64,000 bases of DNA from assembly GCA_027262695.1 (NCBI GenBank), contig GCA_027262695.1_4722.1, one strand, 5' to 3'. A model generated the notes under the pieces. It had not been told where the DNA came from. It was given only the letters and a program-made list of their open reading frames with translations, and searched no databases. The DNA comes from a phage. Position 1 is the first letter of the stretch; each line of letters begins with the position of its first letter. A program made the translations under genes and the position numbers. This document shows, in pieces, positions 1 through 4,518 of the stretch.

Positions 1-2358
1 GTAGTTCGCTTTAAGATGTTCTAATAACGGAGTAAGTCCGCCTAGGTAACTTAGCACAACGCCAACCGGGATACGTACGCCCATGAACTCAAGGTCAGCG
101 GCTTCGATAGGCATCTTCGCGGCATTGATACCGAAGAAATCAGGGAACGTTCCAACCGGCGTTGGGGTTTGATTCGGTTCGTAAACGTACAACTGATTCT
201 GATTATCCACCGCCAGGAATTCACCGTTGGTGTTTTTGGCGAACGTTAAGAATCCACCCGCCAGCTGTTCGGTGAACAAATCTGCGCCGATATGTTCTGG
301 CAACGTTTTGATATCGAGGCGTATGTCCCAATCCGCAAATTGAATTTGGGTGTAGTTACGCGCAAGCACAGCGAAGTAATACGGAACTTTGACAGCCGGA
401 TCAAAGACGTTACCACGTTTTAAGGTGGTTAGCGGGGAGGTTTTATCGTAATACATCGCTGTGAGTTGACGTGTTAACCAACGACCAGCATTATTCACGA
501 CACGCTCTGAACGTTTAACAAACACCTTACCGTAGGCGGTACTCAACGCAACTTCGGATGATGATACCTTTCTGATAGGTTTATCAACACGTTGTTTACG
601 CATCCGGTATTTAATACCGTTAACGACATAAATACCGTCCTTACGAACCTTCGGTAACATCACCGGGAACGTCGTTGGAACACCACCCACCGGAGCCAGC
701 TTGATCGTGATGACCTGGTAATCACCCATCACGTCAACAACATCTTCAACTTTATATCCGGTAACAGGATAGCCTGCTTGTTGCACTGCCACAACGGCCG
801 CTGCGATGTCCTTTTGCATCACGTGTTCAACGTAATGTTTATCCCACACCGCAAGCGTCGATTTACATAGGCTCTTATCGACGATAACATCCGCTTCCGG
901 CATAACCTTTGCTGGCGCTAATTTCGCGGCTTTTGGTTTAACCTCAACGTATTCAGCAAGCGTTAGTCCAGAACCGTCAGGTGCTTCAATTTCATGAATC
1001 GCGTCAGCGTTACGCATCGCGGCTTTATATTGAACGCCGCTTAATTGACCCGCATCCGCGAGGTCGCTCGCACGTACCAACACCGCATCGGATAACGACT
1101 GAATATATTCACCGTGCGTTTTCGGCAACGTTGCCGCATCGAAGACATCATCTTTTTCTTCCGGCACGTCGTCGTTGACGACCTCAAAGAGATCATCGGT
1201 GATGTCTTGATCTTCGTCCGGTTGAAAATCGGGCTGAACTTCAACGCCCGGGACTTCACGAACATCTTCGAACGCACGCTCAACAACCGCGTTCCATGCT
1301 TCAGCGTCGTCATCCTCATCCGATCCTCCGATCAACTCGCTTTCCAGTTCATCGGGGTCAAGAACGGTATCGAGATCCTCACCGTTAGGAAGCACGACAT
1401 CACGTTCATCGTACTCCGCATCGGGACTGTCTGCGAGAATATCACGCTCCTGACGAAGAACCTGCTCCTCTTCTTGTTTCTGTTCTTCTTCGTTGGCGCT
1501 CTGCGACCACAGACGGGTTACCGCCATCATCCAACGACGCTGGAATGTTTCAAGCGTTGTCTTATCAAGTTCCTCGCCTTCCTTCGCCAAACCCGAACGC
1601 CATTCTTCCATTAAACCAAGATTCAGGGTAAAGAAATAGACGCCGTCCGTAAATACAACGTTAAGCTTATCCAGCGAAGCACGATCCAATGACGCCATCG
1701 TACTGTTCTCACGATCGACACCTAACCAGCGGAAGAAGTCAAAGAACGACAGCTCCTCTGAGGTGGCAAAATTCATGAGGTTATTACGGGTTGGGGCTTG
1801 TTGTGTCGTACGCATCAACGATATCTTCGGTAACGTCGACGGGATACGGAATAACAAGAACTGCTGACGGTCGCTTTGCTTGGCGATCTCGTTTGCTTGC
1901 GTCCAAATCGTTTTACGCACGTTGAACCACTCATCATACCAACGTGTTAGCGTCGGACGATAGATGTACATGTGGTTAAGATGCGCATAGTTAGCCACGA
2001 TCTGGGCGTTGATGTTCTTCTCAACCTTGCTAAGATCGGTGACCAAACGAAAACGACGATGCGATGCACGGTAATCCAGTTTCGCACGCGGTAGCTGAAA
2101 TCGCTGATCGCGTCGAGGCGCGCCTTGCTTGGTTGCGAGGTCATCCGCGAACGATATCCAAAGCTGTGCACTTTCTTTGCTCAGCATGTATTCGTTTTCA
2201 GGAGGACCTATTAACGAAGGATCGGTTGCTGTGTAATGATAAACAGCATAACGCGGCAGCTGCAAAAGCTGCACCAAACGCAATCTAGGTGATAATAACT
2301 CTTGATAACGTCGTACACCGAATTGTCTGTAGTAATCAAGGTATTTAAGTTTTGCCAT
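1..2358 (-). CDS. large hypothetical protein, 5' part only (>785 aa, runs off window start); contains long acidic low-complexity stretch
   Basis: Uninterrupted minus-strand reading frame from ATG at 2358-2356 to position 1 (manually translated, MAKLKYLDYYRQFGVRRYQELL...); GGAG 8 nt upstream of ATG; not in ORF track because no stop in window. May alternatively be the 3' exon of the intron-containing gene upstream. Confidence 0.6.
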   Translation of the reverse strand, partial: MAKLKYLDYYRQFGVRRYQELLSPRLRLVQLLQLPRYAVYHYTATDPSLIGPPENEYMLSKESAQLWISFADDLATKQGAPRRDQRFQLPRAKLDYRASHRRFRLVTDLSKVEKNINAQIVANYAHLNHMYIYRPTLTRWYDEWFNVRKTIWTQANEIAKQSDRQQFLLFRIPSTLPKISLMRTTQQAPTRNNLMNFATSEELSFFDFFRWLGVDRENSTMASLDRASLDKLNVVFTDGVYFFTLNLGLMEEWRSGLAKEGEELDKTTLETFQRRWMMAVTRLWSQSANEEEQKQEEEQVLRQERDILADSPDAEYDERDVVLPNGEDLDTVLDPDELESELIGGSDEDDDAEAWNAVVERAFEDVREVPGVEVQPDFQPDEDQDITDDLFEVVNDDVPEEKDDVFDAATLPKTHGEYIQSLSDAVLVRASDLADAGQLSGVQYKAAMRNADAIHEIEAPDGSGLTLAEYVEVKPKAAKLAPAKVMPEADVIVDKSLCKSTLAVWDKHYVEHVMQKDIAAAVVAVQQAGYPVTGYKVEDVVDVMGDYQVITIKLAPVGGVPTTFPVMLPKVRKDGIYVVNGIKYRMRKQRVDKPIRKVSSSEVALSTAYGKVFVKRSERVVNNAGRWLTRQLTAMYYDKTSPLTTLKRGNVFDPAVKVPYYFAVLARNYTQIQFADWDIRLDIKTLPEHIGADLFTEQLAGGFLTFAKNTNGEFLAVDNQNQLYVYEPNQTPTPVGTFPDFFGINAAKMPIEAADLEFMGVRIPVGVVLSYLGGLTPLLEHLKANY

Positions 2359-2562
2359 GGGTTAGGCTCCACGAGGTCCCGTTAAGTTGCGTAATAGGAA
2401 CGCAACCGTATCGTAACCAATATCAATGTTGAATTTATTTTTACCGCTTACCCAGAAAGCACGCTTCTTGTGCGAGTTGGTAATTTCGTCGATGGCTTCC
2501 ATGGAATAAAGAACGTTAACCGAGACCGTATCACCGTCGAACCTTGTCTTCGCCTCAGTTCG

Positions 2563-3060
2563 CTACGCTGAGACCGCCTGCATGGATACGTACATGACAG
2601 GCTGCTTGCACTTTCATGCAAGAGGAGACTATATCAAACCGGCAGCTTCACCTTCTCGATCGTATCGAGAATGCGGTGCTGAAGTATTCTTCAGCAGCAC
2701 CTGCTACGGTAACCTACACTTCGAAGACGCTTGTCCTCTACAGGGTGGTAAATCCCTTAGTCGTTGAACCTGCGTTGTTTCCCATTCTTGGTTGCAAGAA
2801 TGCCGTATTACTACGCAACAACCAGGCTGCTGATTGCCCATTGTCTCGCACCTTAGCACCGCTTACGCGGCTTTTCTTTCAGCCTAAGCCTCTTACGGAG
2901 GTAGTGCATCTCAACTGTTGTTTCTGCCTTTCGGCACCCCATGGGTCGTTGAGCTTTAGGGGTTCCCAGCAATTCGTAGGTTTTTCAAGCACTCCCTTTC
3001 GGGAATACCGGACAACTTCCCTTGAAAAAAGTCTTTATTTTTCAAGGACTTATCCCCGCC
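2563..3060 (-). ncRNA. candidate group I self-splicing intron (boundaries approximate)
   Basis: Minus-strand core elements in canonical order: P AATTGCTGGGAA (2974-2963), Q AATCAGCAGCC (2835-2825), R GTTCAACGACTAAGGG (2769-2754), S GATATAGTCTCC (2635-2624); R GACTA pairs with S TAGTC (P7). No ORF >60 aa on this strand across ~600 bp between two long same-frame ORFs. Confidence 0.6.
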
Positions 3061-4518
3061 GAGTCCCTGGAGGTACGGGCTCGGAATGCAAACCGTTTCT
3101 ACGAACGATGCTTTTTGTTTCCAATCAGGGTATTCCCATGCGATATATCGTTCGTCAGTAATCGGTTCCCAATTACTATCAAGTTCTGTCTTGGGAGAAG
3201 CGTTAACGGTTGTACGCGCATAACAGGTTAACGGAATGACTGACTGCATGCCCGATACCGGATAACGTGTTACCATCGCAGCCAGGTTGTTCCAGTATTT
3301 ATATCCTGCGATATAGATAAGCTCAGTATAAGTAATGGGGTGAACATCCGCACCAGGTTTGTTAAGCATCTCTGGCGGTATTTCACTCATACCGCGGAAA
3401 AGTCGGAATGAATCGTTGTTTACATAAACCAAACAGAGATAACGACCATTCACCATGATAGGTTCGTTACGTACGCCTGGATCGCTTAGCGTGTTCAATA
3501 AACGTTCGATACCATCCCAAGTAGTAAAGTCATCGATGGTGTCAGGATCAAGTACGACTCGTTCACGTTCCATCGTTTCGGTATCGATAAGCTCAACCTC
3601 GGTAACATCACGGACGAAGATCTCTTGCAAAATACCAGTACGTAATGCGTGTTGCGTTATCGGAAGGGCTGCTTTGCTCATCTGGTATAGACCAAGCTGT
3701 ACAGATGTACATGACGTTTGGTTTGGAGAACCGAGAACCTCCGTTGTGGGGTTAATTGCCGAAATAACGTTACGGGTTGAGTTCCAAACACGACGTGAAC
3801 CGAACTTACCTTGGAAGATCCCTTTCTTACCCTGGAACATATCCAACAGCAATGCGTAGATATCATTGAAGGTTCTTTGCAGGCTCCAGCGCTGTCCGTC
3901 GTAGACAGGATCGTTGTAGTCCTTTAATCCATCGGGAACGGTATTGGAGATAGCAAGGAAACGACGGTAGAGCTCCGTGATTTCTTGTTCGCTTTCATAC
4001 CCGCCTTCCTTTACTTCTATTTCACGAAGACCAGCAGGTAACACCAATAAATGACGGGTCATCGCTTTGAACATGTTTTCTTCGACAACTTTAATACGCA
4101 GTTCTCGTTGCGCTGAACCTGTTGAAACGAACTTGATCTCCGCAACGTGTTGTGCGAAGAAACCGTAGCCGGTTTGTCCCGTTAATGCGTCAGCAGCAAC
4201 GAAATCACGCTGTTCTGGATCCCATCGTGCATAAGCTTTACCGGACATGATATCGCCATAAAGGTGTTTCAATCGAATAAGGCGATCGTAAATGACCGGA
4301 TGCAAGATTTCCACTTTACACTCGATGACCGCAAAGCGGCGATCACGATCTTCACTACCCGCACTCCCAAAGATGGTGTATGAATAAAAACCATCATCAT
4401 GGAAATTACCCGTACTCGGGTCACGGATACTCATGCTGGTAATCTTAGGAAGGAAACGCAACTGCTGCTTATCAAGATGCAGTATACTGATATTGAACGG
4501 CTCTCTGACTTTAGCCAT
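2956..4518 (-). CDS. hypothetical protein, putative 5' exon of intron-interrupted gene (last ~30-45 codons before the stop at 2956 are probably intron read-through)
   Basis: ORF track 2956..4551; start moved to ATG 4518 (MAKVREPF) preceded by AAGGAG with 7-nt spacer. ORF continues through the intron P element into a stop. Confidence 0.55.
   Translation of the reverse strand: [520 protein letters not shown]

Follow-up and report, generated by a model that had tools for sequence, protein, structure and literature searches.

The first 4,518 nucleotides (nt) of the phage DNA analyzed here, a stretch of 64,000 nt from NCBI GenBank assembly GCA_027262695.1 (contig GCA_027262695.1_4722.1; the window, in what follows), encode on the minus strand what we regard with high confidence as two subunits of the multisubunit RNA polymerase that a Goslar-like, nucleus-forming jumbo phage would package in its virions, one of the two genes being split by a group I intron. 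The genes, here called A and B, are adjacent and separated by TAA-CCC-ATG (2364..2356), gene B starting at an ATG at 2358, 4 nt after the stop codon of gene A. The identities of the genes, the exon junction, the class of the intron and the absence of an endonuclease gene are established directly by the comparisons described below. The features on which the argument depends are as follows; a slash marks the point at which an intron interrupts a protein or RNA sequence.

3052..4518, minus strand: gene A exon 1, residues 1-489 (MAKVREPF...PYLQGLGGD)
2542..3051, minus strand: group I intron, 510 nt, with no intron open reading frame
2362..2541, minus strand: gene A exon 2, 59 codons plus the stop codon TAA at 2364..2362, ending ...GPRGA and collinear with intronless homologs
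2530..2541, minus strand: FDGD codons, which with the Asp codon at 3054..3052 encode the catalytic magnesium-binding motif D/FDGD
3757..3831, minus strand: beta-prime motif of gene A, likened to RpoB in the initial annotation and aligned to Escherichia coli beta-prime by hhalign
3010..3015, minus strand: proposed internal guide sequence UUGUCC, read from the sequence
1..2358, minus strand: gene B, first 786 of about 1448 codons, leaving the window at its left edge
592..636, minus strand: GIYVVNGIKYRMRKQ in gene B, candidate counterpart of an RpoB motif (hhalign)
1078..1527, minus strand: acidic, poorly conserved putative linker of gene B, residues 278-427

By profile matches and synteny taken together, gene A is the ortholog of phiKZ gp180 and Goslar gp205, the N-terminal beta-prime-like subunit of the virion RNA polymerase. 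At full length it matches phrog_2986 (E=8.7e-181), and a tblastn search with a trial spliced product found homologs in 310 phage records, 285 of them spanning at least 80% of the query; the match was uninterrupted, in one piece, in most of the rows inspected. The assigned start at 4518 aligns with the N-termini of these homologs, and the stretch between 4518 and an upstream ATG at 4551 is unconserved in Goslar. A family profile built from four orthologs matched 78 PDB chains, the best being the N-terminal beta-prime subunit of phage AR9 (7S01_d, E=7e-13); all 60 of the chains listed are beta-prime or gamma by chain and entry, although a few of them carry the depositor name "beta," and no RpoB chain is among them. 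Compared by hhalign, the family aligns with E. coli RpoC at E=3.8e-7 (residues 139-254 on 218-357), and the control alignment with E. coli RpoB gave E=0.28 at a probability of 0.2%. With phmmer, the single gene A sequence is matched by chloroplast beta-prime in three collinear hallmark segments, including NADFDGD / NADFDGDQMAVHV. Residues D489, D491, G492 and D493 are invariant in the alignment of the four orthologs, and the DFDGD motif that they define is present in gene A only once the intron has been removed. The N-terminal zinc-binding Cys cluster of bacterial beta-prime was not found, there being a single Cys in the first 100 residues; the lack of the CxC...CxxC loop sets gene A apart from cellular beta-prime but not from the phage gp180 family.

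The order of gp181-like, gp180-like and gp178-like genes is common to the window, Escherichia phage vB_EcoM_Goslar, Klebsiella phage Eowyn, Erwinia phage RAY and Pseudomonas phage PA7; PA7 is a phage of the phiKZ genus, and the neighbors of the gene in Eowyn are labeled ORF181 and ORF178. Length class (548 residues for one subunit and about 1450 for the other), gene order beside a gp181-type protein, and the DFDGD motif are all as in the Gp180/Gp178 pair of phiKZ and the gp205/gp207 pair of Goslar. The phiKZ Gp180 protein carries the DFDGD magnesium-binding motif, is found packaged in virions, and purifies together with Gp178, Gp80 and Gp149, with which it assembles (PMC10612078). Gene A is 37-40% identical over its full length to its intronless orthologs, and its exon 1 is 95% identical in protein sequence to Goslar gp205.

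Gene B is, by the same kinds of comparison, the ortholog of phiKZ gp178 and Goslar gp207, the beta-like subunit of the virion polymerase. Its frame is open from the ATG at 2358 to position 1, a run of 786 codons that the initial annotation had recognized, and the portion within the window corresponds to the first 54% of Goslar gp207 (1448 residues) and matches phrog_3148 at E=1.1e-185 over profile positions 2-767 of 1424. A single-sequence PDB search with Goslar gp207 returned nothing relevant; a four-sequence profile was needed. That profile reaches Taq/Thermus beta (E=2e-6) and, by hhalign, E. coli RpoB (E=1.3e-5, residues 977-1314 on 514-937, including the HDDANR segment), and the control comparison with RpoC was negative. 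The significant RpoB similarity of the family lies in the part of the protein beyond the window edge. Homology to beta begins past residue ~550 (residues 506-786 occupy window positions 1-840), and the motif GIYVVNG is present in gene B. In the top local hhalign alignment, which is nonsignificant (E=0.021, probability 2%), FPVMLPKVRKDGIYVVNGIKYRMRKQ of gene B pairs with RpoB within residues 123-268; the pairing of GIYVVNGIKYRMRKQ with RpoB, which is the very one made in the initial annotation, is collinear with the significant match downstream. In the PA7 ortholog of gp178 there is an Asp-Asp pair at 1071-1072, matching D1072 of phiKZ gp178, which the intron endonuclease of PhiPA3 is described as targeting (PMC11620839).

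The acidic stretch of roughly 150 residues noted in the initial annotation is real, comprising residues 278-427 (nt 1527..1078). Aspartate and glutamate make up 36% of it (49 of the 135 residues scored) versus 10.8% of the rest of the gene B protein, and the same segment in the four orthologs is 20-33% acidic versus 12-13% elsewhere, so that the bias in composition belongs to the family as a whole. Invariant columns across those four proteins amount to 1% of the segment and 11-18% of the remainder. Most simply, the stretch would be a disordered linker between an N-terminal domain of ~280 residues and the beta-like body; for the N-terminal domain itself (residues 1-277; window 1528-2358), neither Pfam nor the PDB gave a match.

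The source of the window is, from its nucleotide identity to Goslar and its collinearity with that genome, a species-level relative of Goslar. Positions 1-4600 matched Goslar alone in the phage collection searched (87% nucleotide identity), positions 60000-64000 are 90% identical to it, and the two sequences stay collinear through the point at which the Goslar record arbitrarily begins and ends. The Goslar genome is 237 kb long and circularly permuted, and the phage is a jumbo phage related to phiKZ (PMC6563267).

The boundaries of the intron were taken from alignment with three intronless orthologs, those of Eowyn, RAY and PA7, in which the junction region reads GLG[AG]-D[FY]DGDT. U3052 is the last nucleotide before the 5′ splice site, and G2542 the last before the 3′ splice site. 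Three Goslar-like genomes were recovered from IMG/VR by a scan (Goslar itself and two others, L010 and L011), and L010 (IMGVR_UViG_3300011560_000001, 237.5 kb) lacks the intron: at locus positions 5440-5500 it reads GGG GAC/TTT GAT GGT GAT, the junction in its wider context being ...GGTGGGGAC TTTGATGGT... Relative to this allele, the window carries an insert of exactly 510 nt, and the 548-residue L010 product is collinear with the spliced product of gene A, with 21 substitutions and no insertion or deletion. The predicted ligated junction in the window is GGGGAU-UUCGACGGU. An alternative junction joining ...KNKDF to DGD, in which the 5′ site was set from the Rfam P1, was rejected since it leaves a 7-residue insertion relative to the intronless homologs.

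The inserted sequence matches the Rfam family RF00028 (Intron_gpI) at 3037..2605 on the minus strand, scoring 58.4 bits where the gathering threshold is 50 (E=3.1e-12); the match covers model positions 1-253 of 253, yet only the ribozyme core of the intron. The predicted fold is more stable than that of shuffled controls (z=-4.4). The exon/intron sequence GGAU/AA would pair with UUGUCC as P1, placing a U.G wobble at the splice site, and the minimum-free-energy fold contains a P1 extension hairpin of 10-11 bp at 3048..3019. The intron ends in AAGG, with a terminal G. Two extra hairpins are predicted between P7 and P3′, an arrangement seen in phage introns of subgroup IA, and on that basis the intron may belong to this subgroup. 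Covariation counts obtained from RNAalifold for the introns of the window, L011, Goslar and Xanthomonas phage LucasX were discarded since the LucasX sequence was poorly aligned beyond ~100 columns.

Removal of the intron restores both the reading frame and the DFDGD motif. We envisage that the primary transcript would self-splice, using the U.G-wobble P1 at GAU/AAG and the terminal G that precedes UUCGAC, and that splicing would join ...PYLQGLGGD to FDGDTVSV... to give an active subunit of 548 residues. The only sense-strand open reading frame in the intron is a 31-codon read-through from exon 1, with its stop codon at 2958..2956; translation of unspliced RNA would accordingly run 31 codons into the intron and then stop, yielding a product of 520 residues without the active site. 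A 181-residue open reading frame also lies antisense to the intron (2616-3161, plus strand), with a shorter version in Goslar. This frame is probably spurious, its occurrence in Goslar following from the 96% identity of the intron DNA.

Several considerations weigh against this account of the locus and should be set beside the evidence that favors it. The assignments of the polymerase genes depend on profile and ortholog comparisons built from four sequences. Pfam was scanned with both exons, gene B, Goslar gp207 and the portal gene fragment at the right window edge, and no meaningful match emerged for the polymerase genes. Taken alone, the portion of gene B inside the window does not match RpoB significantly, and a profile of gene B residues 520-960 found no RpoB match in the PDB. 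The proposed P1 is short, at 6 bp, and P10 would be only ~3 bp. That the intron self-splices is predicted from its sequence, and the packaging of this polymerase in virions would be an extrapolation from phiKZ.

Of the other ways in which the locus might be understood, the one entertained in the initial annotation, a divergent RpoB-like (beta-like) protein as the host of the intron, now commands almost no credence. It drew on a superficial resemblance between a segment of the intron host and the RpoB motif GDKMAGRHGNKGVISKINP, and public records that label the Goslar gene and its relatives "RNA polymerase beta subunit" would seem to favor it. The hhalign comparison places that same segment on a beta-prime motif, however, and not on the RpoB motif GDKMAGRHGNKG; the gene A profile discriminates between the two subunits (RpoC at E=3.8e-7, RpoB at E=0.28 with a probability of 0.2%); the listed PDB chains are all beta-prime or gamma; and the spliced product bears the beta-prime-specific DFDGD motif. 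What survives of the original suggestion is the involvement of a divergent multisubunit RNA polymerase. The segment GIYVVNGIKYRMRKQ, which was also likened to RpoB, belongs to gene B, whose family does match RpoB, and not to the intron host; its pairing taken alone is nonsignificant. The order of the elements was rightly described as unlike that of canonical RpoB, because the motifs being compared belong to two different subunits. A profile search had been proposed as the means of settling the question, and the family profiles identify gene A as beta-prime-like and gene B as beta-like.

We think it very improbable that the two genes represent instead the non-virion (middle/late) polymerase set. 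Gene A does have a weak secondary match to phrog_2987 (RNA polymerase beta; E=2e-6), an indication that the paralogous sets are related, but its best full-length PHROG is phrog_2986. Synteny beside the gp181-type giant lysozyme-domain protein fits the gp181/gp180/gp178 arrangement of phiKZ, the gp178 Asp-Asp landmark is found at 1071-1072 in the PA7 ortholog of gene B, and the homolog in phage N1M2 is annotated "virion-associated RNA polymerase beta' subunit." It is also highly unlikely that gene A is permanently split, its exons being translated as separate polypeptides that assemble noncovalently and the intervening RNA being a dead relic of an intron. Such an arrangement has a parallel in the beta and beta-prime subunits of jumbo phages, whose coding sequences are known to be divided among separate genes (PMC10612078); in GenBank, Goslar gp205 is an unspliced coding sequence with exon 2 unannotated; and splicing in the window is predicted from sequence. 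Exon 2, however, has no start codon ahead of FDGD; a TAG 30 nt upstream closes the frame, and the first ATG is 14 codons inside. The break between the exons falls within the metal-binding loop, the ribozyme core scores above the Rfam gathering threshold over the full length of the model, that core is 96-97% conserved between lineages whose flanking sequences are ~85% identical, and the intron is exactly absent from L010, an otherwise collinear relative. We therefore favor two virion polymerase subunits, the beta-prime-like one being restored by splicing.

Goslar-like genomes hold a series of alleles at this site: intronless (L010), a 510-nt intron (L011 and the window), and a 2044-nt intron with an HNH endonuclease gene (Goslar). 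The L011 genome (IMGVR_UViG_3300045988_173921) has at 5468-5977 the same 510-nt intron, free of an open reading frame, that is found in the window. In Goslar, the 2044-nt insertion at the gene A site holds gp206, an open reading frame of 490 residues that matches HNH_3 (E=3e-8), NUMOD1 weakly, and the phrog_59 HNH endonuclease family (E=2e-26). This reading frame lies past the 5′ splice site and ahead of the guide sequence, in the P1 loop, where the window has a short P1 hairpin; in effect, the endonuclease gene replaces window positions 3013-3095 with 1.6 kb. No endonuclease reading frame was found in the 510-nt intron of the window. The Goslar copy of the intron scores 67.7 bits against the Rfam model. 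At the insertion point, the intronless L010 allele differs synonymously from the intron-bearing alleles (GAC/TTT GAT versus GAT/TTC GAC), and the change alters the base at which a U is needed for the wobble.

The distribution of nucleotide identity around the intron is uneven. Goslar, L010 and L011 form a clade with 95-99% internal identity; in exon 1 and gene B, the window shares ~85% identity with each of them. The intron of the window, on the other hand, is 96.4-96.9% identical to the copies in that clade, and the first 213 nt past the 3′ splice site differ from each clade member at 4-6 positions, after which divergence rises to 12-18%. An intron and 213 adjoining nucleotides that are 96-98% identical, set between flanks that are ~85% identical, would be explained by horizontal transfer; the sharp boundary of identity looks like a co-conversion tract and argues for movement of the intron between lineages.

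The last ~150 nt of exon 1 (3052-3200, minus strand) are 25-35% diverged from all three Goslar-clade genomes, above the background of ~15%. Eleven of the 21 amino acid differences in the gene A product fall in the last 50 residues encoded by exon 1. Possible reasons for the excess divergence at the 3′ end of this exon are that a variable loop is under relaxed constraint there, that the segment came from a third donor, or that selection acts on the target of an endonuclease.

The same few codons are interrupted in other phages. LucasX (locus L006, 5441-5845) has a 405-nt group I intron without an open reading frame at the identical position, GLGAD/FDGD (Rfam, 56.8 bits). In Vibrio phage pir03 (L007, 5486-6860), the intron lies 6 nt downstream, DFD/GD, scoring 40.7 bits, which is below the gathering score; an HNH_3 plus NUMOD1 open reading frame precedes its ribozyme core, as in Goslar. 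Aeromonas phage ACP1 (L008, 5459-5716) carries a 258-nt interruption 9 nt downstream, DFDG/D, for which Rfam gave no match even at E<=10. The ACP1 interruption ends in G, contains a J8/7-P7-like element, AAUAUAAUCUAUCC, and folds with z=-2.2. It is possibly a group I intron of a compact and divergent kind. In LucasX we also observed, between the beta-prime and beta genes (6041-7381), an open reading frame of 446 residues that weakly resembles a phiKZ internal head protein (E=1e-3, below the Pfam cut-off).

A close precedent is found in PhiPA3, in which a group I intron encoding an HNH nicking endonuclease, gp210, interrupts the virion RNA polymerase gene gp211/209 (Birkholz et al. 2024, PMC11620839). 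PhiPA3 and the window are alike in having a group I intron in the virion polymerase gene of a chimallivirus at conserved active-site aspartate codons, and the HNH_3 plus NUMOD1 endonuclease of the Goslar intron is of the same general type as that of PhiPA3. They differ in that the PhiPA3 intron is located in the beta-like gp178 homolog, after the Asp-Asp pair, whereas the intron of the window is located in the beta-prime-like gp180 homolog, inside DFDGD, and has no endonuclease gene. Relative to Goslar, the window differs at ~13-16% of nucleotides and lacks the 490-residue HNH reading frame, gp206; the phiKZ-type PA7 and the phages Eowyn and RAY, unlike the window, have intronless orthologs. 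In the non-virion polymerase of AR9, too, beta-prime is split, and the C-terminus of its N-terminal half contains DxDGD (7S00/7S01, chain d), but this subunit is a distant paralog from a non-virion enzyme of a Bacillus phage, and only residues 37-255 align confidently. The self-splicing group I introns of T4 (td, nrdB, sunY) and those in the DNA polymerase genes of SPO1 and Bastille likewise occupy highly conserved codons of essential enzymes and have optional homing endonuclease genes, although their host genes are different from that of the window. The endonuclease reading frames of the T4 and SPO1 introns lie in P6, P8 or P9 loops, unlike the P1-loop reading frame of Goslar.

Beyond the polymerase locus, further parts of the window deserve mention, among them two genes:

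4641..11363, plus strand: phiKZ gp181-type protein of 2240 residues, divergently transcribed from gene A
62659..64000, plus strand: portal protein gene, first 447 codons, leaving the window at its right edge

The reading frame at the right edge is, by sequence comparison, that of a portal protein orthologous to Goslar gp36 and phiKZ gp129. It matches the Goslar structure 11ed_J, "Portal Protein gp36," at E=1.2e-292 (residues 1-447 on 1-447), phiKZ gp129 (9xpe_M) at E=9.5e-35, and phrog_3004. The initial annotation correctly described this frame as open from 62701 to 64000 (433 codons), but the gene starts at 62659, an in-frame ATG 14 codons upstream of 62701 that equals the start of Goslar gp036. 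As it also reported, the frames at both edges are missing from the program-made list of open reading frames, because they run off the window. A mechanically called open reading frame at 60220-62700 (minus strand), if begun at its TTG at 62700, would run over the start of the portal gene at 62659. The start of its Goslar homolog, gp035, corresponds to ~62631, and the real genes would therefore be divergent without overlap. Elsewhere, the reading frames at 47220-49268 and 52949-55102 (both minus strand) encode paralogous tail-fibre or virion-structural proteins with five or six repeated modules each, and both match phrog_2163 and phrog_13857 in multiple stretches.

The comparison also bears on existing records. 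In the Goslar record (NC_048170; locus L001, 6361-10051, corresponding to record positions 211574-215264), gp205 is annotated as unspliced, with a false C-terminal tail of 13 residues; no annotation is given for exon 2, which holds the catalytic FDGD codons; and the beta-prime-like subunit is labeled "RNA polymerase beta subunit." The intron is already flagged there as an RNA feature. Published work already covers the gene families, the occurrence of group I introns in the polymerase genes of jumbo phages, and the concept of the intron endonuclease as a weapon (PMC11620839, PMC12908238). The modest novelty here consists of the correct spliced gene model, the finding that a second Goslarvirus-like lineage has a copy of the intron free of the endonuclease, the allele series, and the clustering of insertion sites inside DFDGD. 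In the library of papers searched, we found none that describes the Goslar beta-prime intron or these points.

Both reading frames at the window edges and the gene that hosts the intron are now firmly identified. We speculate that the intron at the DFDGD site is part of an active system of interference and immunity among co-infecting Goslar-like phages, a proposal that we offer tentatively and consider rather unlikely as it stands. In such a system, gp206 would nick the intronless, L010-type allele as PhiPA3 gp210 does phiKZ gp178, and the endonuclease-free intron of the window would persist by destroying the target, thereby protecting the essential polymerase gene. The active-site codons would then be a recurrent battleground, with three independent invasions 0, 6 and 9 nt apart in chimallivirus lineages. 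Among nucleus-forming phages, Goslar serves as the E. coli model. There are four natural alleles at one essential polymerase site, one intronless, two endonuclease-free copies in backgrounds ~15% diverged, and one with the endonuclease, and together they make up a ready-made system for testing the idea of the intron endonuclease as a weapon outside Pseudomonas.

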